Position numbers and translations under genes: made by a program. A stretch of DNA of 64,000 nucleotides. Source: a virus. Lineage: Duplodnaviria; Caudoviricetes. The stretch covers positions 21,708 to 85,707 of the IMG/VR virus record IMGVR_UViG_3300032269_001670. One strand, 5' to 3'. Positions 715 to 62,199 of the stretch are shown here, in pieces. Position 1 is the first letter of the stretch. Each line of letters begins with the position of its first letter. The notes under the pieces are model-generated. The model worked only from the letters and a program-made list of their open reading frames with translations, did not search any database and was not told the DNA's origin.

Positions 715-754
715 ACCGGTACCTCCTACTACACACCCCAAATAGGGCAGTACC

Positions 755-1821: not shown

Positions 1822-2000
1822 TGGAGCCGATAATCATCCGCAAGGAAGAAGCCCCAACGACGGATCTAAAGTGCCGAGACTGCGACGACAAAGCTCGTGC
1901 CGTTTGGCTTGATGGCGGCGGTGCGGTGCCACTATGCGATCCGTGCGTAGAGGCGCGACGAAAGGTATACCGCCGCAAGTATGCCGTGATGCCCGGATGA
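1821..2000 (+). CDS. 59-aa zinc-ribbon protein (CRDC...CDPC)
   Basis: Not in the ORF track; TAATG and ATGA overlaps with both neighbours. Confidence 0.75.
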   Translation: MEPIIIRKEEAPTTDLKCRDCDDKARAVWLDGGGAVPLCDPCVEARRKVYRRKYAVMPG

Positions 2001-2217: not shown

Positions 2218-2616
2218 ATGGCTTTAAAGATTGCCGCTTTTCTTGGGCTCTGGTTTGGAGTCACCGCAGCTATCCTGATCAACACCCCTGCCAAAGGAAC
2301 GGATTCCTCTCGGTTTTCTGACCAGTTGGTAGCCCTGCATGAAGAAGTATTTTATTGGCACGAGAGTATGTACATTGGCGGAGCCGGAGCCGAGTGGAAG
2401 CCTGATTGGGACTGGTACATGGACTTGCAGGGGAAGATTGAAAGGTTCCAGGCGGAACTCGACCGTGCCCCCAATAGCTCGTGTGCAAACGAAGCTCGTG
2501 CTATCGTCATCTTGCACTGGCCATGGCTTGCCACAAGTCCTGCTGACATTGCCGGGGTTGAGCTCCGATGGAAGGAATCTATCGACAAACTGCCGTTATT
2601 GTGTGGAGAGTTTTAA
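2218..2616 (+). CDS. Secreted or membrane-anchored hypothetical protein
   Basis: N-terminal hydrophobic signal-like segment; tightly packed in the operon. Confidence 0.75.
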   Translation: MALKIAAFLGLWFGVTAAILINTPAKGTDSSRFSDQLVALHEEVFYWHESMYIGGAGAEWKPDWDWYMDLQGKIERFQAELDRAPNSSCANEARAIVILHWPWLATSPADIAGVELRWKESIDKLPLLCGEF

Positions 2617-38812: not shown

Positions 38813-41800
38813 TTACCTCTTTACGTATCCGGTTGAGCGGAGCGCTCGAGCCTGTGCCGCCGCCACCCTCTCAGCCAATCGATCAATATCTGCAGCAGAG
38901 TTGAGCTGCGGATTATGGATGTTCACTGTACCACTAATTGGTGATCGAGATGGGTGTGCATGCACGTTCGGTGGGGTCATAGATCGTGGGCCACCAGTGA
39001 GGAGGTCCATAAGGAATCCAGGAGCAGACATTTCTGCCATTGTGCCGCCAATAGTTGCCCCAGTAATTCCCATAGTTTTTAAGAAATCTTTTGACAAATA
39101 ATTACTAAATCCGTTGTTATCTAATGCTTTCAGGCCCCAATTTTGTAAGAAAGTAAGTTTTGACGCCATTTGCACAAACTTACCTGGCTCATAACCTGGT
39201 TGCCCAAGATTTTCCCATGATTGACCAAGTTTATATGACCATGATCCTTCCTTCATGCCATTTTCTACGTATCGCTCAAGTAGACCTCCCGCTTTTCCCG
39301 CAAGAGCCCCCAATGGTGCTCCGGCGCGCATCAAAAGCATCCCAAGAGCAGACTTCCAGTCTCCGCCCATTTGCCCATTTCTGCCAAAACGCGCTACGGT
39401 CTTTTGCCAATCTTGCATATTGTTTAGGTTATGCATTCCGGAATCACCCGACCCAGTGCCAAAGGCATACCCACCCAGGCCCATATTGACAGCGCCAAGA
39501 GCTCCCGCAGACGAGCGCAACCAGGACGGAAGCTTGTGGTTCGGGACGACACGAATACCGTTTTGCCCAACTTCGATCATCTCCGGTCCGCGTTCGCCAA
39601 CCATGAACTGGCCGGCGCTGGAAATCATGCCGCCAGCTGCGCCTCCAGGAAGGATATACGATGGCAGGAATAACTGCGCATTTGCCTGACCAAGACTCGT
39701 TGGGCCACCAGTTCCGCCGCCATAAAGGGCGTTAGTGAGCGCCTCAATCAGGGATTGGTTGTTTGGCAGCAAGATGCCCTGCAGTGCCGTTCGGAAAGCG
39801 GAATCTTGACTCTTTACTTCAGATGCAAAGATCTCTGCGGTATCAGAGATATTGGCCATTTGATTGTTCAAACCAGTAATTGTCTTGACAAGCAGCGCCC
39901 GGATCTCGTCTTGCTTGTCTTGAGCAATATTTTTTCCTCCTCCGGTAGTAAAGTATCCTGGATCAACCTTTCCATTGGCGTACTTTTTGCCAAGGGCGGC
40001 AAGAACGCGCTGGACTGATTTCTTTTGATCAGCAAGATATTTTTCCTTGTACGTCTTTCCGGTAACCTTGGTCTGGCCTCCAGTGTTAAAGATGTCAAGG
40101 GCATCTTGCGCGGCCTTGTAAAGCTTGTCCTGTCGAGCGGCCTCGGCCGCTTTGGCAATTAACCCAGGAAGAGCTTTGAAGACCTTGGTTACGCTATTCT
40201 GCATGGCCTTCATAAAGCCATCGCCAAAGGACGACATAAACGAGTACCCCTGGCTTTGCGCAACGTCAAGATCAAGGCCGGCAGATGCAAAGATGTCTTT
40301 AAACTTCTGCTTGGCAGCAGCCGTTCCAATCCTTCCTTCTTGAATTTGCTTCATCAAATCGTCCATCTGCTCTTGGATGGATCGAGCCCGTTCTGCCTGA
40401 TCCTTTTGTAGGGCCTTTGCCTTGTCTTCGTAGTAGGTCGTTGTTTCCGTATAAGAAACACTACCCTTGCCGGCTTCAATCGCCTTGGACATTTGATCCA
40501 ACTTATTTGTGCCCATCTGGTTGAATAGGTCTCGAGCAGCTTCTCGAGCCTTGCGGGCGCGCTCCAACGGGGCAACAGATGCATCAAAGACATCAAGAGC
40601 AGCCTCAGCCGCAGCAGTACGCTGCTTCTCCAGCTCTGCCATCTTGTCCATCTCTTCGCGCTGCTGCTTCATGGCACCGTACTGCTCCTCAAGGACGCCA
40701 AGCCGAACCATTTCGCCGTTATACATAACCATAGTGTTCTCAAGGGCATGTGCCTTTTCATCCTCAAGCGCCTTCTTTTCGGCATCAAACATCTCTTGGA
40801 TAATTTCCTGAGTTCGTGACGTAAGTCGAGCAAGGTCAGTTTGGAATGGCTCTAACGCTTTCTGGTAAGCGTCCTGAGCTTCTTTTAGCGCTGCGCCAGT
40901 GGCGTCTAGGTTGTCGGAAAGCACCTTTGCAATGGCGTCCTGAGCCTCCTTGCTTCCGCCAGCAAGGTCCTTAAACATGGCTTTAACTTGATCAACCGTT
41001 TTTCCTGTTGCCTTGGCAATTTGCTCAAAGCTGGCCCCCTCAAGGAACATCTTCCCAGCAAGCTTATCGGGGCTTTGAAGAATAAGCGCCTGAGCATTTT
41101 GACGAAGAAGATCTTCCGGGCTGACTTTATCAAGATATTCTTTTTGCCAAGCAGCAAGCTTTTTGACCCACTCATCAAGCTGGTCTTTTATTTCGCCTTC
41201 ATTTGGCTGGTAGGCAAGTGCCTGCTCGGGGCTATAGCCATTCTCTATAAGGGTTTTATACAGGGTACTTCCCACTTGCACCTTGCCCGCCGTGGGCTTT
41301 TCTGGTGGAGCAGGAAGGTTGGTCGGAATATTCGGGAAAAGCTTTTGATATTCAGTTTTTCCATAGTAGTCAAGAAGTGTCTGCTGCGACGAGTATGCGC
41401 CTTGATAGTCAGCTGCTGCTTTTCGTTGCTCATCAGTTACTTGTTGATCCATCCACCATCCGACCAAAGCAGAAATTGCTATAAGAACACCAGCAATGGC
41501 GAGACCCATTGTTCCAAAAGCAACTTTAAGAGCATTTCCTGCCATGGCAAGACCGGAAATTCCAAAACCAACCTGTGTCAAACCATCGCCAATTGCTGTA
41601 AGGGTTTTGCTGTTAAGTGCTGAGCCCATCAGACTTGTAAACATGCCAATTCCCATCATGGCAGTACCAACCATCTGCGCCCTTGCGGCAATAGCCTTTA
41701 TGACTGTTTTCAAACTTTCAAGGCTAAGCCCAGTGGTCTTAAGTTTCATCACAAATTGGCCAAGTTGCGCAATTGAGCTCTGATTGGCTTCTTTGTAGGC

Positions 41801-44800
41801 ATTGGAAAGAGCGCGCATTCCGGAGGTGCCCATATCCTTCTTTAGAGCTGCCCACTCCACCTTTCCTTCAGCCGTGTTTCTATTGTTGTAAAGTTCCCTG
41901 TAGCGGCCCATAACAAGGTTGGCAGTTTCTGGATTTAGGGCATTATTCCGAACAAAAGCATTCTGGGTTGCCCCAGGAACTAGCGCACCGGCCGGGATAC
42001 CAGTAAGTTCCATACCATTTGCTGCGGCAAATTTAGGAAGAATATGCATTGCTGCTCGCATAAGCGCAGGGCTTCCGTACCCCATTCCAGCAACCCCAGT
42101 TTGCCCAAGCGCCATTGTCGGAGAGGCGCCCATCATTGCCGCCAGCCCCTGTGGTTCATTTACAGAAAGACCATACAGCTTATTTCCGGCATACATGCGC
42201 TTGCTGGCGCCAAATGCTCCACCCGCGCCCATAAAGCCACCCATGGCTCGGCTGTTTTGCATGCGTTCAAGTGCCTGGGCGGCAGCCATGGTCGCATTCC
42301 CGAACTTTCCCATTGCGGCGGCCATGCCGTCCACAAGAACCTTTTTGCCGATAAACGCAGCAAGGGCCATACCAATGATGCTGGCAAATGGTTTAACTGC
42401 CGCGCCAATCTTGCTAAATACGTCAAGTAGGGTTATAAGAATTGGAGACAATGATCGAACAAGGGCCCCCATGGTGGCAAGGAATGTTTCAATTCCCGCA
42501 GAAAGACCCTCAGTTACTCCTGGAACAAAGTTATCACTAATTCTTGCAAGAATCTTGTCAAACTGTGGTTTCACCCGATCAAATAGATCGCCAAAGCCAA
42601 ATGAGTTATTTTTTACTGCGGTCGAGATTGCACCGATTGCGGTGGTTACCAAGCCAATAGTTGCCAACAGGGGGTTAGATGCAAGGGTGGACATTAGCAA
42701 CTTTGCGGCAATTGCAGCTACGCCAAGATTACGAATCACATCGTTTTCAAGAAGTTTTCCAATAGTGCCAATCCCGGCGCTGAAGTTTTGAACTAGACCA
42801 CCAAGTGTTGATTTGGTGCTGCCAAGGGCTGATCCAAGTTTTCCAAACGTTGAAACAAAGCTACTACCAAGTTTCATGATGGCAGAAGCAAATCCTGGAA
42901 TGAATTGACGCAGTGCCATTGCAATCTTGGAGATTATATCGCCAAATGCCTTAGACTTGTTAATCCATTTTTCTGTTTGGAACAAGTCTGCTAGCTGCAC
43001 CGTAAAGTCTCGAACAACATCGAACAACGGCTTAAAGCTTGTTGCAATCAAAGATTGTGAGGTATCCGCAAGCGTGGTCATCGCTCCCGAGAACGTTCGG
43101 GAGTACGCCATCATTCCTCCGCCATAGCGCTCCCCAAGGCCCTGGAGAATGGCCTGCACGGACTCCGGTCCGGATAGTCTGCCGACTCGAGCGAGCTTGC
43201 GGATTGTCTCGACGGCGGTCTTTGGGTCAAGCAGCTTTTTATAAATCTCCATGTTAGCTTTCTTGAGCGCTGGATCTGCCTCAATCTGCTTGATAACCGC
43301 CTGTGACAAGATTTCATACCCGGCAATACCAGCGTTCGCCAGCTGCATCATGTCGTTTTGGTAGACGCGACCAGCGGAGTTCATCTGACCAAGGGCATAC
43401 GTGACGCGGCGGAGCTTGTCGTCTTCTGCACCAAGTGCAGCTACGGCGTCGCCAATGTTAACAAGAGCTCCACGGAACTGCTTTGCCTCTCCGGTGAGCT
43501 TGCGCCATGGGTTTGGAATCTCCTCCAAAATAGCCATTTGCCCCTTGGCCTTTGCCTTCACGGAATCGATCTCAAAACCGAATGCCTTCATGCGGAGGGC
43601 TGCGGTCTCAAGATCACCGAATCGGAAGTTTGTAACGTTGGCAAAGTCACGCAAGACAACGATGAAGTCATCCGTCTTTTTCTTGGCATCCTCTAAGCTA
43701 TACCCGGCATTGTGGAACAGGGTGGTAAATCCAACCGAAGCGGCCTCAATCTTTGCGTTGAACTCAATAATACCGCCACGCAGGTGGTTAATCATTCCTA
43801 CGAAGGCGAATACTGCTTGCTGACCAATGGCAAGGTTTGCGGCAAACCTCAAGGATGACATCGCACCAGCAGTGAAGCCAGTACCAACCTCAGTCATCAC
43901 CTTTCCAAGCTGGTTGAAGTTGATATTTCCCGATCCCATAACTCGATTGAGTCGCGTCTGTGCGTTGGCCATTGCCTCGGTTTCCATGACCTGCTTTTGA
44001 TAGGCAACCTTTGCTCCACTCTTAAGTTCCGCAGATTGCAACCCGCGAGTAGAATAGGCCTCCCTAGCCTGTCGGAAGGCAGAGAGTGGCGCCCCAAGCG
44101 GTGAGTTATAAAGCGCTGATCCGGCAAGGCCGCGAGCATTCGCAAGGCTTTCTTGAATTTGCGCCTGCGGCATCATGAGGCGCTCCATGCCAACGCCACG
44201 GAAGAATCTTCCGCTTAGACCGCCGCCGGATACAAGCGCCTGTCCGTAATAGCGACGGATTGACTCAGCTGCGGTTTCTGGATTGTATGGAACGAGTGCG
44301 CCACCGCCAGTGAATGAGCCCGGTTGTCCTGGGGCGCCTGGTCGCGCCCCCTGCAAGACAACTCCTCCAGGGATTCCCGTATGCGGAACGTTCTCGAGAA
44401 GCATTGGCAGCTCCCTCGTTCCTCGACCGGCGCCTCGACTTGCTCGTCCGCCCGTAACAAGCCGCTCTGCGGCGGGAATTTCTGCCTTAGAAACTTCTTG
44501 GAACGAACGAACAAGCTGCCGAACCATTTGATTGGCTTTTTCCACGTGTTCCACATTCTTTGGATCAAAGAACGGCTTTGCGCCAGGAGCTTTAACAAAA
44601 GATTCTGGGTTCATGCCGAGTGCGAGCATGCCTTTCTCCAGCGGAGACAGGCCCACAAGATATTTTGCTACCTCTGATCGGGCACCGGAAATTTCTTGCA
44701 TTGGGCGAGAAAGTTGGCTTTCTGGGCCAATAAGCGCTGTTGTTCCTTGCGCGGCAGCAGAAAGCAGTCCCATGCGTGTAGCCTGAAGGTTCTTGCCCTT

Positions 44801-47800
44801 AAAGCTTTCTGGCGTCAGGCCAGATAGGTAATTGCCAATGTGCGATGCGGCCTGCAAGCCTCCCGACTCTGGGAGAAGTCCCAGGCCAATGGCAGATCCA
44901 AATGATCGCTGGGCATAACGCTGTAGGCTTCCAAGCCCCTTACCAGTAGTTGATCCAAGTTTGTTGTAAATGTTTTTAATTGTTTCAAGATAATTATTAA
45001 CAAGTTTAGTCTGCGCTGGGCTGGCAAGCTTTTGTAGTTCTGGTAGCAATCGGGCCGCCTCTTTGCCAACGCCAAACTCTGACATTGCTTTTTGGTTACC
45101 AAAACCGCCCGGAACAGCCTCGCCCATAAGTCGATGGAATGCCAGCTGTGCCGGAAGAGCTCCAGAAGACTTGGAAGTTGCTGCTTGCAGTCGATAAAAC
45201 TCTGGGTCAAGGTGTCCAGCAGACATCGGCTCTCCGTACCGAGCGGCAGCGAGGGCATGGGGCATGTATTGAATATTCCCCTGAGCATTGCGAACAATTT
45301 GACCTTGATTGTTAATTTGCGGAACTTCTGCTGGGTTTCTATAGCCCTGGCGCATGCGCTCTTGGAATTGTCCATGCGACAACTCATGAATCATAGTGCG
45401 CAAAACTGACCCGCTTGATCGTTGTCGCAGGCCAGTAAGCAGCATGGAATTCTCCGCCGTGTTGTACATTCCCTGCAGTCCGCCCATTCCGCTTTCTGCA
45501 AGATTAAGGCTGGTCATTCTTCGAGCAGGTAGATATGTTTCAAGGAATGGTCGAAGCAAAGTTGAGAACCGTTGCATACCTTCAGGGCCGCCTTCGGTTT
45601 GGGCGTTTACTTGGGTAGATGCCAACTTTTCACCTTGGAGTGATCGAAGCGGGCCAAACTTTTCTGACAAAATGCTGATCTGTCGTGCCTGCTCTCGGCT
45701 CGAAAGGCCTTTGAACTCTGTTCCAGACATGAGCGCGCGCATCTGTTGGCGCAACTCATTGGCCTTCTGTGTATTTAGGACAGATTCATTTGGGTCAACA
45801 AGGTACTTACCGGTCTTTGCATTAAGGCCAGCAAGAGACATGTTGTAGTTTGATCGCAACCTAGCCAGGGTTGCGCGCCCTCCAGCCGCAGCATAGAGCG
45901 GGTTGGTTGGGTCTCCTCCGCCGGCTCCAGACAGTGCTGTTGGGCGGCCGCGACCGCCACCACCGGCTCCGCCGGTAAGCACCTTTTCGGCCTCCTTAAC
46001 GACTTTCTCCTCTTCCTTTGCAACTTTCTCTTTTGCCTTGGAAGTTTTTGTGCCAGCCTCGGCCGCTTTTGTAGTCGCTACTGCTTCCTTCTGTTGAGTC
46101 TTTAGGGCGGTTCCAAACATTGCCGTAACAGACGCGGCAAGTTCTTCGTGACCATTTAGGGGATCAAGTGAAACGCCACGCTCTTTTGCAAGAGCTCGAA
46201 GATTGTTGGCCATTTGCAGTTGACCCATAGCAACTTCTGGAACTGCGCTGCGCGGTTGAGCAACGTAGTTTTGCAAATTTTCCATAAGCTTCATGTATCC
46301 GGTGGCAAGGCGGGTATTGAACACGCCTTGTCGCTTTGGGTCGGATTCTGCGTATGGGATATACCCACCGGCTCGCGCCTTGACGCTTCCCTGGGCAATA
46401 CCAAGCTCACGAGGAGAGATGCCATATCCACCCTCGGGGGTTGCACGATACGCATTTGGTCGTCGGAATCCAGGGTTTGCCTTGGCAACCGTTTCAACAA
46501 TCGCTTCAGATGCCGTAGTCGCTACTGCCTCACTTGCGGCTTTAACGGCAGGCTTTGCGGCAATGGCTGCAGCTGTTGGAACAGCCTGTGGCATGCCAGA
46601 GAAGACTTCATTCAAAACCGTCTCAAACAACGCAGCTTTTTGGGCGGAAGATCCCTTGCCCCTCATCCCCTTTGACCCCTGCACATATCGATTAGATGCC
46701 TCAATAGCCATCCGTACGGCCTGGCGAGGATCAGCCTTCATCGACCCGCCTTCTTCGCCAAAGAGGCTTGCCTGGGCTCCTTCTGCCTTTGCCCCATAAG
46801 AAGTCATTGTGCTTAGGAATGCGCCAAGACCACCAGATGGAACGGAAAGCATTGCAGAAGCTAGGCGCACATGCTCGCGTGGGATTTTTCCTCCAAACAT
46901 AGTCTTTTGTGAAAGAAGCGCGCGCGCTGCGCCAAGTTGATTTCCAACAAGGCCCTCTCGTTGAGCGCCGCTAATCCATGCCTGAGGTCCAGTGGTGGCC
47001 TCTTGCATCAGCTTTAGGGCCCCAGGGAGGTTGTTAAAGATTGGGTCCATGGCAGCTGGCAGTTCACCACTCTCAATGCGGCCGCGCAGGCGCAGTTGTG
47101 GTCCAAGGTTGCGTTCAAGGGCCGCACGAGTAGTTGATCCAAGAGCGCTTGGCTCTTTGCTATACGCGGAGGTCAACATCTCGGCGGTGGCGGTGTTATT
47201 GCCGTATGCCTTGGCAACAAGCGTCTGCATCATCAGGTTGGTCATCTCGGTGCCAGTCCCAAAACGCTTCGATGCAAGTGTTGAGCCAAGCGCCTCTTCA
47301 ACTAGTTGGCCCCTAAATGCCGAGAATGCTTCGCCCTTACCGGCAGCAATTGACTTTCGTGGATCTCCGGCAAGGAGTGACTGTGGGAGCGGGCCAATCA
47401 TGCGAGACGCTGCGTGCGCGATCTCCTCAGTGGTCAAACCAGTTCTAGCGTTGAGCTGAAGACCAAGTTGACCTTGCTGACGTGGGCCAAGCTGCTCCAT
47501 AGAGGAAGTAAGACGCCGAACAAGCATAGGGGTTTCTCCGGCAGCAATAATTGCCTTCGCCTCTTTTGCCAATGCAGCAGTTTCGCCCTTGCCAAACTCT
47601 CCCGGGTTTTTCTTCATGAACTCAGCAACAGAACCTCGAATAACTTCTTTTCCAGTTTCCCCAAGGTTTTTTACAATTTGTCGCATGCCCAACGTTCGTC
47701 CGTTTCCAGAAAGAACAAACTCTTGCCCAGCTTGGTTTACTACTGTGGCAATAAGTCCTTCTTCAAGGTTAGTTGTTGGGGTAAAAATTTTCTCACGTTG

Positions 47801-49006
47801 AAACTTAGTTGACATGTTGTGAATTTCTTCTCGAGTTTTTTGAGAGAGTTGGGCTTGTGATCCTCGTGGTCGAGGCTGCATAACTGTTGGATAGCCACGC
47901 TCTGATTCAGTGGAGGCAATCATGCGCTCCAGAGAGGTCATGCCATATTTTGCGCCAAGCGTAAATGCGCCGGTACGCGGATCTTCATACATTCCTGGCT
48001 TACGAGGGCCAAATCCTGCCTCATCTCGGTACCCGCGACCATTGATAACCCCGCCAGCCTTTCGGGCAAGAGAAATGAAATTCTGCAAGGCGCGTGCGTC
48101 CGACGGTGTTCCTGGGAACGTAATCGGTTTGAACTCCCTATTTACCGGCTTTGCTACGGGATGCCCACTTGGCCGGCCCTCAATCCTCCAGCCCTGTTGC
48201 TCCAGTTGCATGAGGACATTACGCCAATCCTTTGGAATGCCCTTTAGGTCAGAAACGTCACCCCATCGGCCCTCTCGACTTCCGCCGCCCCTGCCACCTC
48301 CGGCGTAACGAGTTTGCGTTGGGGTTGGGTTTGCCTCAACGTAGCGCTTCTGCTCTGCAAGCTGACGGCGCATCTCAATTGCAGCTCGGAGCTGTCGGGA
48401 GCCCTGAGTATTTGGATCTGTGGCGCGAATATTTTCCGATTGAGCAGCCTGGACCATACGTGACCGCTCGCGCTCTAGGCGCTTAGTGGTTCCCCTGGCA
48501 ATTTCCTGTGTAATTCTTGACTCGCGCTCCAACATCGTTCGATGCGCGCGTTCCCTGGCAGCCCGCCCAGCCTCAAACTCTTTCATGAAATCAGAAGAGT
48601 CACGGAGGCCACTCATTGTTCGGCTGAGCCGCTGCATGGCCGGGATAGTCTGGCGGTTGATTGCCGTTGCCATGGCAACTGGATCAAACCCGGCATTGCG
48701 CGCCATTCTTCCGCCAAGAAGTGGGGAGGCGGCAGCAGTTCGATCAAGCTGACGAAGTGCGGGGATGGCTAAGCGCTGAATATCGCGCGCAAATCCTGCA
48801 GGGGTAAATGCTCCAGAGGCACCACCAGCGCGACCGCCAACGCCGAGTTGGCCAAGGTTGGTTTTCTGGCTGGCAGCCTGAAGCTCGCGCAGTCCGGTGA
48901 GGAGTCGGGAGATGTCGGCAAGAGCTCGGGCTACGCCAGAATTAAACGCAGACGAGTCTAGAGATAGACCTACGCTTGCGACATTCCCGCCCTTACCCTC
49001 AGCCAC
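38813..49006 (-). CDS. Tape measure protein fused to HicA-like, ddrB-ParB-like and HExxH domains
   Basis: Tape-measure core (RDFANVTNF...ALGQMNSAGRV...QLANAGI) from about aa 1750; GERGPEM; follows the chaperones. Confidence 0.92.
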   Translation of the reverse strand: MAEGKGGNVASVGLSLDSSAFNSGVARALADISRLLTGLRELQAASQKTNLGQLGVGGRAGGASGAFTPAGFARDIQRLAIPALRQLDRTAAASPLLGGRMARNAGFDPVAMATAINRQTIPAMQRLSRTMSGLRDSSDFMKEFEAGRAARERAHRTMLERESRITQEIARGTTKRLERERSRMVQAAQSENIRATDPNTQGSRQLRAAIEMRRQLAEQKRYVEANPTPTQTRYAGGGRGGGSREGRWGDVSDLKGIPKDWRNVLMQLEQQGWRIEGRPSGHPVAKPVNREFKPITFPGTPSDARALQNFISLARKAGGVINGRGYRDEAGFGPRKPGMYEDPRTGAFTLGAKYGMTSLERMIASTESERGYPTVMQPRPRGSQAQLSQKTREEIHNMSTKFQREKIFTPTTNLEEGLIATVVNQAGQEFVLSGNGRTLGMRQIVKNLGETGKEVIRGSVAEFMKKNPGEFGKGETAALAKEAKAIIAAGETPMLVRRLTSSMEQLGPRQQGQLGLQLNARTGLTTEEIAHAASRMIGPLPQSLLAGDPRKSIAAGKGEAFSAFRGQLVEEALGSTLASKRFGTGTEMTNLMMQTLVAKAYGNNTATAEMLTSAYSKEPSALGSTTRAALERNLGPQLRLRGRIESGELPAAMDPIFNNLPGALKLMQEATTGPQAWISGAQREGLVGNQLGAARALLSQKTMFGGKIPREHVRLASAMLSVPSGGLGAFLSTMTSYGAKAEGAQASLFGEEGGSMKADPRQAVRMAIEASNRYVQGSKGMRGKGSSAQKAALFETVLNEVFSGMPQAVPTAAAIAAKPAVKAASEAVATTASEAIVETVAKANPGFRRPNAYRATPEGGYGISPRELGIAQGSVKARAGGYIPYAESDPKRQGVFNTRLATGYMKLMENLQNYVAQPRSAVPEVAMGQLQMANNLRALAKERGVSLDPLNGHEELAASVTAMFGTALKTQQKEAVATTKAAEAGTKTSKAKEKVAKEEEKVVKEAEKVLTGGAGGGGRGRPTALSGAGGGDPTNPLYAAAGGRATLARLRSNYNMSLAGLNAKTGKYLVDPNESVLNTQKANELRQQMRALMSGTEFKGLSSREQARQISILSEKFGPLRSLQGEKLASTQVNAQTEGGPEGMQRFSTLLRPFLETYLPARRMTSLNLAESGMGGLQGMYNTAENSMLLTGLRQRSSGSVLRTMIHELSHGQFQERMRQGYRNPAEVPQINNQGQIVRNAQGNIQYMPHALAAARYGEPMSAGHLDPEFYRLQAATSKSSGALPAQLAFHRLMGEAVPGGFGNQKAMSEFGVGKEAARLLPELQKLASPAQTKLVNNYLETIKNIYNKLGSTTGKGLGSLQRYAQRSFGSAIGLGLLPESGGLQAASHIGNYLSGLTPESFKGKNLQATRMGLLSAAAQGTTALIGPESQLSRPMQEISGARSEVAKYLVGLSPLEKGMLALGMNPESFVKAPGAKPFFDPKNVEHVEKANQMVRQLVRSFQEVSKAEIPAAERLVTGGRASRGAGRGTRELPMLLENVPHTGIPGGVVLQGARPGAPGQPGSFTGGGALVPYNPETAAESIRRYYGQALVSGGGLSGRFFRGVGMERLMMPQAQIQESLANARGLAGSALYNSPLGAPLSAFRQAREAYSTRGLQSAELKSGAKVAYQKQVMETEAMANAQTRLNRVMGSGNINFNQLGKVMTEVGTGFTAGAMSSLRFAANLAIGQQAVFAFVGMINHLRGGIIEFNAKIEAASVGFTTLFHNAGYSLEDAKKKTDDFIVVLRDFANVTNFRFGDLETAALRMKAFGFEIDSVKAKAKGQMAILEEIPNPWRKLTGEAKQFRGALVNIGDAVAALGAEDDKLRRVTYALGQMNSAGRVYQNDMMQLANAGIAGYEILSQAVIKQIEADPALKKANMEIYKKLLDPKTAVETIRKLARVGRLSGPESVQAILQGLGERYGGGMMAYSRTFSGAMTTLADTSQSLIATSFKPLFDVVRDFTVQLADLFQTEKWINKSKAFGDIISKIAMALRQFIPGFASAIMKLGSSFVSTFGKLGSALGSTKSTLGGLVQNFSAGIGTIGKLLENDVIRNLGVAAIAAKLLMSTLASNPLLATIGLVTTAIGAISTAVKNNSFGFGDLFDRVKPQFDKILARISDNFVPGVTEGLSAGIETFLATMGALVRSLSPILITLLDVFSKIGAAVKPFASIIGMALAAFIGKKVLVDGMAAAMGKFGNATMAAAQALERMQNSRAMGGFMGAGGAFGASKRMYAGNKLYGLSVNEPQGLAAMMGASPTMALGQTGVAGMGYGSPALMRAAMHILPKFAAANGMELTGIPAGALVPGATQNAFVRNNALNPETANLVMGRYRELYNNRNTAEGKVEWAALKKDMGTSGMRALSNAYKEANQSSIAQLGQFVMKLKTTGLSLESLKTVIKAIAARAQMVGTAMMGIGMFTSLMGSALNSKTLTAIGDGLTQVGFGISGLAMAGNALKVAFGTMGLAIAGVLIAISALVGWWMDQQVTDEQRKAAADYQGAYSSQQTLLDYYGKTEYQKLFPNIPTNLPAPPEKPTAGKVQVGSTLYKTLIENGYSPEQALAYQPNEGEIKDQLDEWVKKLAAWQKEYLDKVSPEDLLRQNAQALILQSPDKLAGKMFLEGASFEQIAKATGKTVDQVKAMFKDLAGGSKEAQDAIAKVLSDNLDATGAALKEAQDAYQKALEPFQTDLARLTSRTQEIIQEMFDAEKKALEDEKAHALENTMVMYNGEMVRLGVLEEQYGAMKQQREEMDKMAELEKQRTAAAEAALDVFDASVAPLERARKAREAARDLFNQMGTNKLDQMSKAIEAGKGSVSYTETTTYYEDKAKALQKDQAERARSIQEQMDDLMKQIQEGRIGTAAAKQKFKDIFASAGLDLDVAQSQGYSFMSSFGDGFMKAMQNSVTKVFKALPGLIAKAAEAARQDKLYKAAQDALDIFNTGGQTKVTGKTYKEKYLADQKKSVQRVLAALGKKYANGKVDPGYFTTGGGKNIAQDKQDEIRALLVKTITGLNNQMANISDTAEIFASEVKSQDSAFRTALQGILLPNNQSLIEALTNALYGGGTGGPTSLGQANAQLFLPSYILPGGAAGGMISSAGQFMVGERGPEMIEVGQNGIRVVPNHKLPSWLRSSAGALGAVNMGLGGYAFGTGSGDSGMHNLNNMQDWQKTVARFGRNGQMGGDWKSALGMLLMRAGAPLGALAGKAGGLLERYVENGMKEGSWSYKLGQSWENLGQPGYEPGKFVQMASKLTFLQNWGLKALDNNGFSNYLSKDFLKTMGITGATIGGTMAEMSAPGFLMDLLTGGPRSMTPPNVHAHPSRSPISGTVNIHNPQLNSAADIDRLAERVAAAQARALRSTGYVKR

Positions 49007-49300: not shown

Positions 49301-49588
49301 TTACGCCTCCGCTTTTCCCTCGATGCCCTCTTCACCGCTGCCAATCAGGCCGCTTGAACGGAGCACCTTGTCGATCTCGTCACGCATAGTGTCAAGCGAG
49401 AATCGCTCGCCAACGCCGCGCTCGTCGATCTTGGGATCATCCTTGCGAAGGACAAGCCAAAGAATGTAGCGAAGAACAGTGAAACGTGTCAGGTCAACCT
49501 TGTCAAGGCCACCAAACTTCTCCTCAATGTCAGCGAGATCATTGAGGTTGAGTACGCGCGCAGCGCGCACCTCATTAAGGTTCGCCAT
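49301..49588 (-). CDS. Tail assembly chaperone G
   Basis: Between tail tube and tape measure; SD AAGGAG. Confidence 0.8.
   Translation of the reverse strand: MANLNEVRAARVLNLNDLADIEEKFGGLDKVDLTRFTVLRYILWLVLRKDDPKIDERGVGERFSLDTMRDEIDKVLRSSGLIGSGEEGIEGKAEA
49313..49319 (-). promoter_or_regulatory. -1 ribosomal frameshift heptamer G GGA AAA
   Basis: The -1 frame is open (SGGVSWSEIDWGSI) into ATG 49271, 42 nt away. Confidence 0.85.
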
Positions 49589-51913: not shown

Positions 51914-53191
51914 ATGACAGAAAATTATCGGTATCTGAGGCCGTGGTCGGCTGCAGAAAAGCAGGATGCTTTAAAGATGGATTTTAGCGAGTTTGGCAAA
52001 ACGTACCCAGATCGTTCGATTCACGGGTACAAGATCATGCGAAACAAGCTGCTCCGGGGAGAGAAGTCTTTTATTGATCGGCGGGCCTTCAATGGTCGCT
52101 CGCCGGAGATTATCCCCGGCACGTTGCGGGAGGCCATTGCGTCTGCTCGCGGAAAGGTGGAACTTGTGAAGGAAGTTGCCGAAAAAGAAGTTGCTTCGTA
52201 TGAGGCAATCGGCGAGGTTGAGCGGCTCAAGTCCGCTCACCGCAAGGCACTGAAGAAGTTGGAAGACAAAGAACGCGACCGAAACGAGCTTGTTGAGGCT
52301 GTTTACCAGGCAGCCCGAGAAGCTTCTGCGGCAATGAATATTGCCCCGGTTGCTCAACCGAAGGCAGATAAGCGCAAGGCCGATGATGAAACAGCTATTT
52401 TGCTGCTTTCAGACTGGCAGCTTGGAAAAATTACACCGACGTACAATTCCGATGTCGCCGCAGAGCGCATTAAGTCGCTCTCTGACAAGGTGGAGCGCCT
52501 TGTCGAGATTCAGCGTGCAGCACATCCAGTCAAGGAGCTCCGCGTGTATCTGCTTGGCGACTTGGTTGAGGGGGAAGACATTTTCCCCGGTCAGGCACAC
52601 CTTATTGATGCCTCACTGTACAATCAGATTTTTCACGGTGGCGAGATCCTTGCCAATCTTGTTCGCCGACTGGCATCGGTTTTTGAGAAGGTGCGCGTTG
52701 TTGGCGTCATTGGCAATCACGGCCGTCTTGGCCGTCGCGGCACGTTCCACCCGGAATCCAATGCCGACGCCATGATGTACCGCATTGCTTCGATGACGTT
52801 GAAGGAGCAGAAGAACGTTGAGTGGGTGGAGACCATCTCCGCCGGCGAACGTGCTTGGTTTGCGACCGATGAGGTTAAGGGTAAGACATGGTTCCTGTTC
52901 CATGGCGATCAGGTATCAGGTGGCTTTGCTGGGTTCCCTTGGTATGGGTTTGGCAAGAAGCTGCAGGGCTGGAACATGACTGTTGCGCGGTTTGATTACA
53001 GCGCAGCCGGCCACTTCCACACCCCAACGCGAATGTACCTGAACGGTATTACGCACTGGAGCGGCGGCTCTACGGAAAGCTCAAATACCTATGCCCAGGA
53101 GCAGCTTGCCTCTGCTGGCGAACCATGCCAGTGGTTGCTGTTTCAGCATGAGAGTGGTGTGACGGCGGAGTATTTGATCCGCTTAAGCTAA
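51914..53191 (+). CDS. Calcineurin-like metallophosphoesterase with N-terminal coiled coil
   Basis: SDWQLG, LGDLVEG, GNHG, FHGD, GHFH motifs. Confidence 0.9.
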   Translation: MTENYRYLRPWSAAEKQDALKMDFSEFGKTYPDRSIHGYKIMRNKLLRGEKSFIDRRAFNGRSPEIIPGTLREAIASARGKVELVKEVAEKEVASYEAIGEVERLKSAHRKALKKLEDKERDRNELVEAVYQAAREASAAMNIAPVAQPKADKRKADDETAILLLSDWQLGKITPTYNSDVAAERIKSLSDKVERLVEIQRAAHPVKELRVYLLGDLVEGEDIFPGQAHLIDASLYNQIFHGGEILANLVRRLASVFEKVRVVGVIGNHGRLGRRGTFHPESNADAMMYRIASMTLKEQKNVEWVETISAGERAWFATDEVKGKTWFLFHGDQVSGGFAGFPWYGFGKKLQGWNMTVARFDYSAAGHFHTPTRMYLNGITHWSGGSTESSNTYAQEQLASAGEPCQWLLFQHESGVTAEYLIRLS

Positions 53192-57056: not shown

Positions 57057-59168
57057 TTACTCCTCGCTGTCCAGCATGCGCTGGATGACGGGCGAAAGCC
57101 AAGGGGCCTTCGTCCCGGAATTGTTTGTAGGAACTGAATACGACTTGCGACCCGATGGGAGATCCATCAGTCGCCCGACGACATCAAGTGCCTTTGCAAG
57201 ATCAGCCTCGACCGTGGCCTTCTGGCTAAGTAGTTCGGTCAGCTGAGCCTTGACGGCTGCGACCTCCTGCTGAGCGGCAAAGGCTGCATCCAGCGCAGAC
57301 TTGGCGATAGCGGTTACCTCGTCGACAGCCGGAGCCTCGACAGCAACCTCAGCCTCAGGCTCTACAGGTGCCACAACTGGCTCCTCTACAACCTCAGGCG
57401 CAACTTCAGGCTTTGGCTCTTCGGCCTCCACCGCAGCCTCCGGCTCGCCATCAGCGGCAAGCTCAGCGACCTTAGAAATGATTCGCGCGCGCTCACCAGC
57501 GCTGGCGCGAACAAGGACGGCCCCAAGATCCTGCAGAACCTGGACAGCCGGATCAACGGCTTCCTCGGCAGCAGGCTCATCAGCGGCGGGCTCTTCAGCG
57601 GCAGGCTCAACGGCCGGCGCTTCAACCACGGGCTCCGCTACGGGCTCGGTGTCAGACTTGGCAATGTCAGCTGGGGCCTCTACGGCCTCGGCATCAATGG
57701 CCTGGTTTTCTTCTGCGGGCTTAACCTTTTCCTTGTCATCGCTTTGCGTGACAGTGACGGTGACCCGCGTGGCCTTTTCAGTATCCACGATAGTGTCTCC
57801 TTCAGTACCGCCCTCTTCTGGGGCCTCTGGTGTCTCAGCCGGTTCTGGCTGAGACTCTTCAGGGGCCAAAGAAGCACGAAGCTGCCATGACCACTTTTGA
57901 TGCATATCCTGGCGCTCTGCCAGGAAGTTAAGAATACCCTGCATGTTGAGGCGGGTAGCCTCACCAATGGCATGGGCGATGCAATCAAGAACCATCTCGT
58001 TAGCGGCGTAGACCGCCTCAGCAAGGCTCTCTTCGTCGTTGTCGTCTGCAACTGGCTCACCTTCGGCTCGAGAGGCAATCTCGCGGATATCGCCAAGGGC
58101 AGGAGCATTTAGTTTACGCAAGAGCTCAGCCGTTGGATCAATGGCCTCTTGAGCGTCTTCGTAGATCTCCCCAAACAGCTCGTGATACTCGCTAAAATCT
58201 TCACCAACAACGTTCCAATGGGCGCCATGCGCCTTAAGATAGAACGAAACCGTATCAGCAAGAAGGTCCTGCAACGCATTAACAAGAGCGGCGCGCTCAG
58301 GGGCTGGCTGACCTTCAACTTCAACAGCCTTCGTGTCAAATTCAAAAATACCCTTCAGGGAGTCAATCTTGCGCAAGGTGGAGCACTTATGCCCAACTAG
58401 CGTGTCGGTCTCCGCCCATCCATCGGCAGCCTCGCGCCAAATGCGGATAAGGGCAGCCGGATCTTCTGGCGTAGCCTCAATCTTGAAGTCAGAGTCCGGA
58501 ACACCAAGGGTGCCCTCGCGCATTACATGCTCAATGCGCCCTCGCGCGGTTCCGCCACTGGAGCCCCAGGAGACAAAATCTCCCTCAACCAAATCGGTTG
58601 CTGCTTTCTCATCAACGACAAGCTCGCCGGACTTCTCTGCAGCCTTGAGACTCTTGATAGCGTTCTGAAGGTATGAGCGCTGGTTGGCAGGAATGCCGAC
58701 GACAGATGCCTCCATCAGCTTGACTGAGTCGATAACATAGCTATCTTCACCAGTCTTTGCGTCCTTCTTCTTGGAGACGCGATCAACACGGGCACCGATG
58801 GATAGGCCAAGTTTGACGCCGCGCTTAATAGCCTTGTAGGCGCGCATAGCCTCTGGGTTCTCGTCCTCTTTGCAAACAAGGACATCAATGTCGAGGTCAT
58901 AGACCTCGGAGTTTGTCTCAGCATCAAAACGCTTGACAACGCGGGCATCGGTAACAGAGCCAAAAAGGTCCTCTGGCACATTGTAGTTATGGTTAAGAAA
59001 GATCGTCATATTCTGCTTGGCGGTGTCTGCCATCGTTCGGATAGCATTCAGCGTCATCTCGTCGCCATGCAGATCTCGGATCGTTGATGAGGTCGTCCCG
59101 GTGACATAGAGCTCGCCGTCTGACGCCTCATATGCCTTTAGGGCATTGGTGTACACCTTGAAATCCAC
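57057..59168 (-). CDS. HK97-type prohead protease fused to TUDOR-like, Dps/ferritin and acidic scaffold domains
   Basis: FLNHN...GLSIGA...LMEASVVGIPAN protease; HWNVVG..F..YHELF..IY......D...E Dps motif. Confidence 0.9.
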   Translation of the reverse strand: MDFKVYTNALKAYEASDGELYVTGTTSSTIRDLHGDEMTLNAIRTMADTAKQNMTIFLNHNYNVPEDLFGSVTDARVVKRFDAETNSEVYDLDIDVLVCKEDENPEAMRAYKAIKRGVKLGLSIGARVDRVSKKKDAKTGEDSYVIDSVKLMEASVVGIPANQRSYLQNAIKSLKAAEKSGELVVDEKAATDLVEGDFVSWGSSGGTARGRIEHVMREGTLGVPDSDFKIEATPEDPAALIRIWREAADGWAETDTLVGHKCSTLRKIDSLKGIFEFDTKAVEVEGQPAPERAALVNALQDLLADTVSFYLKAHGAHWNVVGEDFSEYHELFGEIYEDAQEAIDPTAELLRKLNAPALGDIREIASRAEGEPVADDNDEESLAEAVYAANEMVLDCIAHAIGEATRLNMQGILNFLAERQDMHQKWSWQLRASLAPEESQPEPAETPEAPEEGGTEGDTIVDTEKATRVTVTVTQSDDKEKVKPAEENQAIDAEAVEAPADIAKSDTEPVAEPVVEAPAVEPAAEEPAADEPAAEEAVDPAVQVLQDLGAVLVRASAGERARIISKVAELAADGEPEAAVEAEEPKPEVAPEVVEEPVVAPVEPEAEVAVEAPAVDEVTAIAKSALDAAFAAQQEVAAVKAQLTELLSQKATVEADLAKALDVVGRLMDLPSGRKSYSVPTNNSGTKAPWLSPVIQRMLDSEE

Positions 59169-60024: not shown

Positions 60025-62199
60025 ATGGCGGAAAACCGCTCACTCTTTGGCCGCATCCTTGGCGGCGTTGGCATTTCCTTTGGCGGCTCAGAGAAGGCGC
60101 TTAGTACGGTGCCGGACTATGACTCGTCTCCATATGCCCGTGGCGTTGCCGGTGTTGCACACGCCCAAAAACGCAGCACCCAACAGCTCCGACGATGGTC
60201 GCGCACCAATCCATGGATTCGTGCTGCCATTAACCTTCGCCGCACTCAAGTTAGCCGCGCAAAGTGGGATATTGTTTCCGTTGACTCAGACAGCCCGGTT
60301 AATGCAGCAAAAGTTGATCAGATCAAAAAGCTTCTGCGCATGCCAAATGATCGCATGGATTCATGGCGCTCACTCATGGAGCCGATCATCGAGGACATTC
60401 TTGTCCTTGATCAAGGCGTCATTGAGGTTGAGACAACCAAGGGCGGACGCATTGGCCTGAAGAGCAACCCAGTTGCTGGCCTGTATGCCAAGGATGGCGC
60501 AAAGATTGTGTTTGACTCGGCCTGGGATGGCAGCGACCCGAAGAAGCCACGCTATTACGAAATGGCAGAGGATGGCCGAGAGGTCGAGGCATACCTGAAC
60601 CATGAGTTGATTGTTATTATTTCTAACCCGGTGACGTACACCCCGCTTGGGCTTTCGCCGCTGGAGGTTCTCGCCGACACTATTGAGTCCGATCTTGCCG
60701 CAGCTGCCTACAACGCAAAGGCCGTGATGGCTGCCGCGCCTCCTGGGGTTCTGCACCTTGGAGAGGGCGTTCGTCCGGATCAAGTTGATGCATTCCGTGC
60801 CTACTGGGACGCCGAGATTGCCGGTCGCAGCCAGATTGCCATTACGGGCGGCGGTAAGGGGATTCAGTGGATGCCACTTGCTTCGTCAAACCGCGACATG
60901 CAGTTCATGGAATGGCAAGTCTATCTTGCCCGAAAGATCTGCGCTGTCTTTGGCGTGCAGCCACAGGACATTGGCATCGGCTTTGACGTCAACCGAGCTT
61001 CGGCAGACGTTGGCGCGGCCTTTACCCAGGATGTCGGCATCGCTCCGTTGCTTGACCTTATTGCCGAGTACATGACGCGCGAGATTGTCTGGCGCTATGA
61101 CGAGAATCTACGTTTTGCCTACACCGAAATGGGCAAGCAAAGCCAGGCTGAGATGTCTGCATATTACAAGCAGGCATTAGCCGGCCTTCCATGGCTTCGC
61201 CTTAATGACGCCCTCCGAGAGCGTGGACAGGATGGCGTTGGCGAGCAGGGTGAGCAGATTTGGCTACCAAGTCCTCAGGGCTACATGCCAATGGATGTCT
61301 ATATGAAGTATCTGGACAATCTTGTATCTGGCGGAGCTCAGCCGTCACCTGATGGCAATACCCCTCCAACAGCAAACAATCCGCAGGGCGTTCCCTCACC
61401 AGACCAGGGTCAGAACATGGTTCCGGACAACACGCCGTCCAACAGCCCGCAGTCGCAGACGTCAAAGGCTGATGGCGACCCAATCATTGTTTGCGATATT
61501 GATGGCACGCTGACCGTTCATGACGGAAGCAACGAGCCTAACGAGGCTGTGGTTGGGTATCTGCAGCGGCAGGCAGACAATCATCGTATCTTTATCGTCA
61601 GCGCACGATCTTCCAAGCGCCTGGATGAGACACGCCAGTGGCTTGAGGACAATGACGTTCCGCACGATGCCATCTATCTCTCTGACTTCCCGACTGGAGC
61701 TGGCCTGCAGTTCAAGAAGTACAAGATCTCCAAGATTCTCAAGGAAAGCGGCAATGTGACCGAGGCAATCGAAAACGATGCTGAGGTGCGCGCAGCCTAC
61801 AAGGCAGCCGGCGTTCAAAACGTTCACGGTCCAGATGAGGTTGCCAGCAAGTTTGCTGCAGCTGATTACTCTGGGATCAATCTGAACGTTCCGTCCGCAG
61901 TTCAAGCTGAGGCGAAGCGTGGTTTGAAGTGGCGCGAGGAGTTTGGTCGCGGTGGCATTGGGCCTGGTCAGACCACGGCTCATATGCTTATCGGCAACAA
62001 GATGACCATTGCTCGCGTACGCAAGATGCGCGCCTTCCTGGCGCGACATGAAGTTGATAAGCAGGGCGAGGGATTCAATCCTGGAGAGAAGGGCTACCCT
62101 TCTGCCGGTCGTATTGCCTGGGCGCTATGGGGCGGCAACCCTGGCCAGTCGTGGGCTAACAAAGTAATGCGACAGGTCGAAGCCCGCGAAAAGCGCTAA
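60025..62199 (+). CDS. Portal protein fused to a HAD phosphatase-like domain and an unnamed C-terminal domain
   Basis: Portal motifs (GLSPLE, PPGVL, ICAVFGVQP); VCDIDGTL...VSAR...FKK...IEND HAD motifs. Confidence 0.9.
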   Translation: MAENRSLFGRILGGVGISFGGSEKALSTVPDYDSSPYARGVAGVAHAQKRSTQQLRRWSRTNPWIRAAINLRRTQVSRAKWDIVSVDSDSPVNAAKVDQIKKLLRMPNDRMDSWRSLMEPIIEDILVLDQGVIEVETTKGGRIGLKSNPVAGLYAKDGAKIVFDSAWDGSDPKKPRYYEMAEDGREVEAYLNHELIVIISNPVTYTPLGLSPLEVLADTIESDLAAAAYNAKAVMAAAPPGVLHLGEGVRPDQVDAFRAYWDAEIAGRSQIAITGGGKGIQWMPLASSNRDMQFMEWQVYLARKICAVFGVQPQDIGIGFDVNRASADVGAAFTQDVGIAPLLDLIAEYMTREIVWRYDENLRFAYTEMGKQSQAEMSAYYKQALAGLPWLRLNDALRERGQDGVGEQGEQIWLPSPQGYMPMDVYMKYLDNLVSGGAQPSPDGNTPPTANNPQGVPSPDQGQNMVPDNTPSNSPQSQTSKADGDPIIVCDIDGTLTVHDGSNEPNEAVVGYLQRQADNHRIFIVSARSSKRLDETRQWLEDNDVPHDAIYLSDFPTGAGLQFKKYKISKILKESGNVTEAIENDAEVRAAYKAAGVQNVHGPDEVASKFAAADYSGINLNVPSAVQAEAKRGLKWREEFGRGGIGPGQTTAHMLIGNKMTIARVRKMRAFLARHEVDKQGEGFNPGEKGYPSAGRIAWALWGGNPGQSWANKVMRQVEAREKR

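Follow-up and report, generated by a model that had tools for sequence, protein, structure and literature searches.

A divergent HicA-like domain in the tape measure protein of an uncultured phage

Introduction

Why would a phage tape measure protein (TMP) carry, close to its N-terminus, a segment that resembles a bacterial toxin? TMPs are usually viewed as rulers and channel formers, and Thermus phage P23-45 provides the published case of an enzyme carried into the cell by such a protein. The question comes from a sequence-only reading of a large minus-strand ORF, in which a HicA-like mRNA interferase domain was recognised within a putative TMP and was proposed to act as an injected RNase, for immediate shut-off of host translation. 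The ORF belongs to a complete, uncultured 85.7-kb metagenomic phage; the window, that is the whole stretch of DNA analysed, covers 64,000 nucleotides of it. Coordinates below are those of the window, and all features are listed in Table 1.

Results

The ORF encodes a tape measure protein with several putative cargo modules

The 3,397-aa ORF is a phage tape measure protein, as judged from its core HMM, its membrane-type segments and the gene order. Its TMP_3 score of 35.8 bits is under the Pfam cut-off of 41 bits, and the 3,534-aa orthologue P0002 scores 42.3 bits; matches of the ORF to the PHROG 1686 TMP profile and to TIGR02675 are weak. Head, adaptor and tail genes are found upstream of the TMP gene, and a gene for a 1,693-aa protein and a tail fibre gene downstream. 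From its position, the product of the small tail gene at 49301..49588 would be the tail assembly chaperone. TMP_3, PHROG 1686, the hydrophobic segments and the gene order all bear out the initial identification of the protein. Comparison of the whole TMP with PDB sequences by phmmer gave no match at E≤1.

Table 1. Features of the tape measure locus (window coordinates)
Feature	Position	Strand	Residues	Basis or remark
Tape measure protein (P0001)	38813..49006	-	3,397 aa	Single unbroken ORF, GTG start; TMP_3 and PHROG 1686 matches; syntenic 3,534-aa orthologue in L004/L005
N-terminal segment	48317..49006	-	1-230	Best conserved part between orthologues: 78-98% identity, dN 0.07
Glycine-rich linker	48260..48316	-	231-249	Separates the HicA-like domain from the conserved N-terminal segment
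HicA-like (dsRBD-like alpha-beta-beta-beta-alpha) domain	48026..48241	-	256-327	PHROG 2089, AF2, fold searches, hhalign; net charge +7
His282 codon	48161..48163	-	282	Paired by hhalign with catalytic His23 of E. coli HicA
TPSD-x-R-xxx-N motif	48080..48109	-	300-309	Caps the N-terminus of helix 2 (60-72 in the AF2 model)
ddrB-like ParB, weak match, unconfirmed	47591..47947	-	354-472	Pfam PF18763, E 0.0013, 19.3 bits (cut-off 27.6 bits)
HELSH, sole HExxH motif of the TMP	45374..45388	-	1207-1211	HELAH in the orthologue
Tape-measure core match, TMP_3	43043..43501	-	1836-1988	Pfam; above Pfam cut-off in orthologue P0002
Hydrophobic, membrane-type segments	region 41447..42670	-	2113-2225 and 2491-2520	Sequence features of the TMP
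Small tail gene upstream of the TMP, tail assembly chaperone slot	49301..49588	-		PHROG 2115 'tail protein', E 3.9e-5

The HicA-like module, of about 70 residues, is flanked by glycine-rich linkers, and the tape-measure core begins near aa 1700. Between the two lie the sub-threshold ddrB-ParB match and the HExxH motif. The AF2 model of aa 335-520, made to check the former, had a pLDDT of 42.6 and was unusable, and a search with this region returned P0003 as its sole match. One HExxH motif is expected by chance at 0.009 per protein; its surroundings matched no peptidase family, and ESM Atlas gave nothing (score 0.76). The conserved motif might mean that the cargo is processed before assembly, which would count against its delivery into the host. 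The best explanation of this layout is that several cargo modules, the HicA-like domain among them, lie between the conserved N-terminal segment and the tape-measure core.

The segment belongs to a family of small phage proteins

The peptide first noticed at aa 256-320 (48050-48240) is present in the minus-strand ORF, its exact position being 48047-48241. It matched PHROG 2089 with E-values of 8.3e-9 (whole protein) and 2.7e-10 (excised segment), over profile positions 27-99 of 107, and an exhaustive phmmer search of 1.84 billion representatives returned at least 100 matches at E≤1e-3, mostly proteins of 60-90 aa. With these two results, a chance resemblance is very improbable. Relatives of the PHROG 2089 type form at least 100 clusters at 50% identity and are mostly stand-alone phage proteins; some database clusters of such proteins, of about 70 aa, carry the automatic name 'HicA family toxin'. 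The stand-alone proteins constitute the direct sequence family of the domain (E 1e-8 to 1e-10) and have the same motifs, but they are free proteins, whereas in the TMP the domain is built into a structural protein as one of its modules. Fusions of the same domain to a cold-shock domain and to RadC occur in other proteins. Longer fused forms, sought with a word-based search, were limited to P0003 and one 336-aa protein, and tblastn with the N-terminal 435 aa, the domain or a stand-alone relative found no match in 50,697 phage records.

The Pfam HicA_toxin model (PF07927), named as a check in the sequence-only reading, gave no match: neither the whole TMP nor the excised segment matched at E≤1, so that the 27-bit cut-off was not reached, and a six-frame scan of the whole phage genome gave nothing at E≤10. 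Searches with the segment alone in Pfam, in NCBIfam and, by phmmer, against PDB did not find HicA either. The domain is thus a divergent relative, and not a member of HicA_toxin by the curated test. Below threshold, 24 of 51 family members match the model (best E 3.9e-5), and one of them, P0092, reaches 26.2 bits over the full model, for a cut-off of 27. Aligned by hhalign to an alignment of E. coli HicA, the family gave a probability of 72%, where 90-95% is the usual comfort level, with an E-value of 3.3e-5 over 54 of 58 columns. The pattern originally taken as that of HicA (GW...GH...P...TPSD.R...N) turned out to be the consensus of the phage family, canonical HicA having PRHP..E at the place of TPSD.R...N.

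The family profile also aligned, co-linearly over positions 4-70, with PDB chains of bacterial RyR (ryanodine-receptor repeat) domains, at E-values of 0.02-0.07 (6e-5 for a tandem chimera) that are slightly better than those of its sequence matches to HicA chains (0.4-0.8). The likeness could then be to RyR domains and not to HicA. However, no family member matched Pfam RyR among the families listed, as opposed to the 24 that matched HicA_toxin, the RyR model (PF02026) has no match in the phage at E≤10, and the fold search of the full PDB described below is led by HicA, with no RyR chain in the top 50. A RyR relationship is therefore very improbable.

The predicted fold is of the HicA type

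The AF2 model of the domain (pLDDT 81, pTM 0.70) has the order H-E-E-E-H, and predicts the alpha1-beta1-beta2-beta3-alpha2, dsRBD-like fold of HicA. In a VIA search of the full PDB (48,161), HicA-family chains came at ranks 1, 2, 3, 5 and 18, with Z scores of 5.3 (1whz), 5.2 (5yrz), 4.9 (6g26), 4.7 (4p78) and 3.7 (6hpb), values around 5 being ones that, VIA warns, can reflect a common arrangement; dsRBDs came below, at Z 3.2. The HicA matches aligned 48-62 residues with rmsd of 2.1-3.2 A, scores that are modest, the domain being small. Foldseek on PDB also placed 6g26 and 4p78 first, at non-significant E-values (0.24-1.7). HicA structures thus lead two independent PDB fold searches, albeit with modest scores, and the viral library (BFVD) is headed by actinophage 'HicA-like toxin' models, with a probability of 1.00, TM of 0.7-0.79 and rmsd of about 2 A. 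For the domain, ESM Atlas gave only leads scoring below 0.9, which were named HicA.

The catalytic-type histidine is present, and is not invariant in the family

The histidine of the GH pair initially proposed as catalytic, at 48161-63, is that of 'SGHP', residue 282. The equivalent residue is catalytic in the characterised HicA proteins (H23 of EcHicA, H24 of BpsHicA, H28 of YpHicA3; PMC11594946). In the TMP the histidine sits at the start of strand 2; it is kept in all TMP orthologues found and in 86 of 102 family domains (84%), being replaced in the other 16. The loop reads S-G-H, so Gly281 adjoins His282, instead of standing at -2 as does G22 of BpsHicA; this Gly is found in 77 of the 102 domains. 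Among the polar residues of the family, conservation is highest in the TPSD-x-R-xxx-N motif (T in 93, P in 90, S in 84, D in 86, R in 98 and N in 94 of the 102 domains). Of the proposal of a HicA-like domain in the TMP, a discrete fold of the HicA-superfamily type with its histidine in place stands; the HicA_toxin HMM does not match, the histidine varies within the family and, as reported below, there is no HicB.

The N-terminal region is the best conserved part of the TMP

A protein-based search for related loci found orthologous TMPs only in L004 and L005 among viral contigs, and none in contigs of genomes or metagenomes. Every orthologous TMP found, from three or four records, retains the domain together with its His and TPSD.R...N. 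For the domain, dN is 0.18, compared to 0.48-0.65 across aa 335-1700, i.e. about 3 times lower than that of the neighbouring cargo, and purifying selection is stronger on the HicA-like domain than on the adjacent cargo region.

The best conserved part of the TMP is the whole of its N-terminal 350 residues, and not the domain alone. This fits an assembly interface, and the domain could be a protein-binding module devoid of nucleic-acid chemistry, used for docking of the TMP N-terminus to the chaperone, the tail terminator or the connector, or a decoy for a host HicB-like or defence protein. A non-invariant His agrees with such a role, and HicA surfaces are known for tight HicB binding. We nevertheless regard this explanation as unlikely. 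Most relatives are stand-alone proteins whose genes belong to early, replication or immunity modules and not to tail modules; the cold-shock and RadC fusions suggest nucleic acids; the domain is strongly basic; and its conserved polar residues are predicted to map to the face with which dsRBD-type folds bind RNA.

No HicB partner accompanies the domain

HicB models (PF15919, PF05534) found nothing at E≤1 in the complete phage genome. Since it has no HicB partner, the domain is not a toxin-antitoxin toxin. Among the gene contexts of stand-alone relatives that were examined, no conserved neighbour or partner gene was detected: the genes downstream of two relatives are mutually unrelated, so no conserved partner or antitoxin emerged, two further contexts being on contigs too short to inform.

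Actinobacteriophages encode HicA-fold proteins of their own, Adephagia gp91 and Amelie gp73, and it is this annotation that tops the viral fold matches. Both are toxic on overexpression, and the adjacent HicB-like gp90 neutralises gp91. We considered gp91 toxicity as a proxy for the PHROG 2089 family and rejected it: gp91 differs in falling outside the PHROG 2089-type profile (E 0.13, no match), so its toxicity is not transferable to the family.

Discussion

We propose, with a probability just above one half (about 0.55), that aa 256-327 form a basic, independently folding domain from a divergent HicA-superfamily branch carried by phages (PHROG 2089), that this domain is TMP cargo and that it binds RNA or DNA at entry. 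The parts of this proposal that are shown here are the homology family, the fold, the correspondence between His282 and the catalytic His of HicA, purifying selection stronger than on the neighbouring cargo, and the tape-measure context.

Because the domain is near the front of the TMP, it may accompany the DNA into the host cell. By analogy with P23-45, expulsion of the tape measure from the tail at infection would bring a few copies of the domain to the inner face of the envelope, together with the leading DNA. There, the domain may bind RNA or the incoming nucleic acid with two of its surfaces, the beta1-beta2 loop (Gly281-His282) and the helix cap formed by TPSD-x-R-xxx-N. The loop and the cap are the surfaces used by dsRBD-type folds. 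Cutting of RNA might come in addition to binding; the odds are against the domain being catalytically active as an RNase, by roughly two to one in our judgement.

Still less probable is that the domain works as an mRNA interferase of the HicA type, injected along with the tape measure so as to stop host translation instantly. This explanation is consistent with the HicA-type fold and the alignment of His282 with the catalytic His, with the retention of the domain in all orthologous TMPs found, and with the precedent of an N-terminal TMP cargo working in the cytoplasm; moreover, the shut-off nuclease of a lytic phage requires no antitoxin. It faces, on the other hand, the failure of the curated HicA_toxin test, an 84% conserved His and the lack of HicB. 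Late in infection, bulk synthesis would put the same domain in the cytoplasm, beside the phage mRNAs. Tails of the lambda and T5 types contain only a few TMP copies per virion. Tethering of these copies to the membrane channel is probable, and growth arrest by HicA was demonstrated on overexpression. It is accordingly doubtful, on quantitative grounds, that the few TMP copies brought by one virion could shut off host translation at once; so small a number of probably tethered copies would more plausibly act on a local or specific target than arrest host translation globally. An active, virion-delivered endoribonuclease cutting a specific host RNA at the entry site within the first seconds (for instance tmRNA, or an RNA on which a defence system depends) would be such a case, which we also hold to be unlikely. 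If true, it would be the first HicA-type RNase that a phage injects as an effector, in place of a role as toxin in a toxin-antitoxin pair, and PHROG 2089 would be a new, antitoxin-free family of phage RNases.

Compared to the HicA toxins of type II HicAB systems (PF07927; 6hpb, 6g26, 4p78, 5yrz, 1whz), which have about 60-70 aa, the domain is similar in size and in its basic character, and its predicted fold is likewise alpha-beta-beta-beta-alpha and dsRBD-like. In both, helix 1 is followed by a GW/G turn, and strand 2 of the domain opens with a His that aligns with the catalytic one. The domain differs from these toxins by a score below the Pfam threshold, by TPSD-x-R-xxx-N in place of PRHP..E, by a His that is not invariant in its family, and by its location inside a 3,397-aa virion protein, with no HicB partner.

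In P23-45, the TMP gp96 has as its N-terminal part a virion RNA polymerase, by which the pre-early genes are transcribed (Chaban et al. 2024, PMC10770324). Like gp96, the present protein is a giant TMP with a non-structural N-terminal module, a metallopeptidase motif and membrane segments. The phages are unrelated, and the cargo of gp96 is an RNA polymerase of about 1,100 aa whose activity was demonstrated, whereas here it is a HicA-like module of about 70 aa whose activity is putative. In the literature, P23-45 was the sole TMP cargo found with a demonstrated action inside the host. The idea of delivery leans on this one precedent, in an unrelated phage.

The sequence-only reading knew of no described TMP-HicA fusion, and our literature search likewise found none. 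A HicA-fold module at the same TMP position as the P23-45 polymerase would widen the cargo idea from transcription to RNA targeting, and would show that a toxin fold can be reused without its antitoxin. It would also offer a first functional handle on PHROG 2089, a sizeable family of small phage proteins. Were the activity limited to nucleic-acid binding, the domain would still mark the end of the TMP that meets DNA or RNA at entry.

Our verdict is that a divergent HicA-superfamily cargo domain in a TMP is a variation on a known theme, that of enzyme-carrying TMPs and polyvalent proteins. The latter, found in phages and conjugative elements, join unrelated small domains, proposed to travel along with the DNA, in one long polypeptide (Iyer et al. 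2017, PMC5512222, a text with 0 occurrences each of HicA and of tape measures). Compared to them, the ddrB-ParB match of the TMP is sub-threshold and its peptidase is a conserved motif only. Hub domains of the polyvalent proteins (zincin peptidase, ddrB-ParB, RadC) recur in this TMP, or fused to the HicA-like domain elsewhere.

The tape measure protein and its setting

The virus record containing the window is complete, with a length of 85,707 bp and direct terminal repeats. The features discussed are collected in the table below. The product of the 3,397-residue ORF is a tape measure protein (TMP), as the sequence-only reading had proposed. This identity is supported by a TMP_3 match, which falls below the Pfam cut-off in this protein and clears it in the 3,534-aa orthologue P0002 (42.3 bits versus 41), by weak matches to PHROG 1686 (TMP) and TIGR02675 at the same place, by membrane-type hydrophobic segments, and by gene order. 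The latter runs from the protease to the major head protein, the head-tail adaptor, the small tail genes and the ORF itself, followed by a 1,693-aa protein and a tail fibre with a Peptidase_S74 chaperone. About half of the TMP is extra, since its tape-measure core begins only near aa 1700. It contains no cysteine and only 23 histidines, a composition which, we infer, would fit unfolded passage through the tail and periplasm.

Additional domains are also present in the prohead protease and the portal protein. The PHROG 284 gene lies antisense inside the otherwise minus-strand head-tail block, and the same inversion is found in the related viral contigs L004 and L005.

Coordinates of the features of the TMP and of neighbouring genes
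Feature	Residues	Window (strand)	Remarks
TMP ORF		38813-49006 (-)	single unbroken frame, 3,397 residues
Conserved bin	1-50	48857-49006 (-)	98% identical between orthologues
Conserved bin	201-250	48257-48406 (-)	98% identical between orthologues
Glycine-rich linker	231-249
HicA-like domain	256-327	48026-48241 (-)	net charge +7
GH histidine	282	48161-48163 (-)	in SGHP
ddrB-like ParB match	354-472		weak, E 0.0013, below cut-off
HExxH motif (HELSH)	1207-1211	45374-45388 (-)	sole copy; kept in 3,534-aa orthologue
TMP_3 match	1836-1988		Pfam, 35.8 bits, below 41-bit cut-off
Hydrophobic segments	2113-2225; 2491-2520		membrane-type
Prohead protease		57057-59168 (-)	703 aa
Extra domain of protease	295-434		PHROG 3636 'DNA binding protein', E 1.6e-22
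Portal protein		60025-62199 (+)	724 aa
Post-portal region	473-600		resembles polynucleotide-kinase/phosphatase-type PHROGs
Additional portal domain	619-722		PHROG 2859
Exonuclease/phosphoesterase-type gene		51914-53191 (+)	425 aa; PHROG 284, E 2e-48

A small domain of a phage protein family

Residues 256-327 make up a true domain, and the family to which it belongs is likewise real. The match to PHROG 2089 (function unknown) has an E-value of 8.3e-9 in the whole TMP, and 2.7e-10 when the segment is excised. An exhaustive phmmer search of 1.84 billion representatives yielded 100 proteins at E<=1e-3. Apart from two giant orthologues, P0002 and the truncated P0003, almost all of these are stand-alone proteins of 60-90 residues. 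In the TMP, the domain is flanked by the glycine-rich linker and by a Gly-rich stretch beyond aa 320. The peptide in which the sequence-only reading saw a HicA-like mRNA interferase is indeed aa 256-320 (48047-48241), with its histidine correctly placed. The 'HicA' pattern given there equals the family consensus, K..R.....L..QGWR......GH....PPD....P...P.TPSD.R...N....LRR.G, but canonical E. coli-type HicA carries PRHP..E at the position of TPSD.R...N.

Stand-alone members were found in early, replication or immunity modules. An HTH_17 gene on one side and RecT/D5 primase genes on the other flank one of them, and a second has a serine recombinase, a NikA-like gene and an M78 peptidase in its vicinity. 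Their neighbourhoods revealed no recognisable HicB and no common neighbour. Likewise, neither a HicB of either Pfam family nor a second copy of the HicA-like domain was found in the phage genome.

A divergent HicA-type fold

The Pfam HicA_toxin model gave nothing for the segment at E<=1, nor did a six-frame search of the entire phage with it yield anything at E<=10. Below-threshold matches were obtained for 24 of 51 family members (best E 3.9e-5), and the fused member P0092 reached 26.2 bits over the full model length, for a cut-off of 27. With hhalign, the family aligned to E. coli HicA relatives with a probability of 72% (E 3.3e-5, 54 of 58 columns), and His282 was paired with E. coli HicA His23. 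According to a review (PMC11594946), mutagenesis of several HicAs has shown that their activity or toxicity depends on this histidine.

A confident AlphaFold2 model (pLDDT 81, pTM 0.70), built from the family alignment, has the order helix-strand-strand-strand-helix. In a comparison independent of Foldseek, against 48,161 PDB representatives, HicA-family chains took ranks 1, 2, 3, 5 and 18, with Z-scores of 5.3 (1whz), 5.2 (5yrz), 4.9 (6g26), 4.7 (4p78) and 3.7 (6hpb); a Z near 5 is attainable by a 60-residue domain, yet lies inside the range for which the tool warns of generic likeness. Classical dsRBDs scored 3.2. Foldseek also put 6g26 and 4p78 at the top of its PDB list, but with non-significant E-values (0.24-0.67). 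Among its top matches in a viral model library were several actinophage 'HicA-like toxin' proteins (probability 1.00, TM 0.7-0.79, rmsd around 2 Å).

The family also resembles bacterial ryanodine-receptor (RyR) repeats, whose proteins its profile matched co-linearly in the PDB, weakly (E 0.02-0.07; 6e-5 for a tandem chimera). This might reflect a distant link between two small-domain families, and stands as an unexplained side observation. However, RyR chains were absent from the top 50 matches of the structure comparison, Pfam RyR was not among the families listed for family members, and it found nothing in the phage genome.

In short, the curated test says no and every more sensitive test leans towards HicA. 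By its curated definition, PF07927 does not include the segment; a HicA-type fold in the TMP is nevertheless well supported, and we put the probability that this is a divergent HicA-superfamily fold at roughly 85%.

Conservation of the domain

Both L004 and L005 encode a syntenic 3,534-aa orthologous TMP. In 50-residue bins, identity was 70-98% over aa 1-350 and 24-70% over most of aa 350-1700. As dS was saturated, only dN was compared: the HicA-like domain had a value of 0.18, aa 2-250 one of 0.07 and the TMP core one of 0.12, and the remaining cargo region ranged from 0.48 to 0.65. The two most conserved N-terminal bins may form an assembly or chaperone-binding interface.

His282, the TPSD motif, Arg305 and Asn309 are retained in all orthologous TMPs found. 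Over the 102 family domains, conservation is 98/95 for GW, 93/90/84/86 for T/P/S/D, 98 for R and 94 for N. The histidine occurs in just 86, with Tyr taking its place in 7 and Ala in 3. With 16% of members lacking it, this residue is less well conserved than would be expected of an indispensable catalytic one, and the invariant polar residues capping helix 2 may be more important.

Proposed delivery and function

Tape measures exit the tail at infection, forming or lining a channel across the envelope, and a virion contains only few copies. The 5,002-residue TMP of the Thermus phage P23-45 has as its N-terminal part a virion RNA polymerase, which transcribes pre-early genes, and also possesses metallopeptidase and membrane domains; its authors propose that the polymerase remains associated with the TMP pore (PMC10770324). 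The present TMP carries a conserved, basic HicA-fold module near its N-terminus. By analogy with P23-45, this cargo would arrive at the cytoplasmic face, where the module may bind RNA or entering nucleic acid via the Gly281-His282 loop and the helix-2 cap. Cleavage of the bound RNA is possible, with a probability of about one in three.

The immediate shut-off of host translation suggested by the sequence-only reading seems unlikely on a global scale, because few, probably tethered, copies arrive while HicA growth arrest was shown on overexpression, and because the domain is made in bulk late, beside phage mRNAs and without antitoxin. Adephagia gp91 is toxic, but gives no match to the family profile (E 0.13), so that its toxicity is not transferable to the family.

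Relation to polyvalent proteins

The weak ddrB-like ParB match, the HExxH motif and the lack of cysteine together fit the idea of a polyvalent protein (Iyer et al. 2017, PMC5512222), a study mentioning neither HicA nor tape measures. The surroundings of HExxH, which matched no peptidase family, are kept in the orthologue (RSSG..RT..HEL.HG.F.E.MR.GY, then GHLDP.FY) within a region of around 36-48% identity; with only 23 histidines, the motif is very unlikely by chance (expectation 0.009).

The sequence-only reading knew of no described TMP-HicA fusion, and our literature search turned up no account of a HicA-type domain within a tape measure. The TMP-embedded form seems restricted to one small phage lineage (this phage, L004/L005 and P0003), and extends the known theme of polyvalent proteins and of tape measures carrying modules or enzymes. 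Elsewhere, the domain is fused to a cold-shock domain (P0064), RadC (P0023) or DUF5661 (P0091), or occurs in tandem (P0009); these fusions hint at a role with nucleic acids and at a link to polyvalent proteins. In P0023 (980 aa, on an 82-kb contig) it is followed, at the C-terminus, by a RadC/JAB domain (E 2.8e-32), P0009 (1,009 aa) has it twice, and both look like polyvalent proteins.
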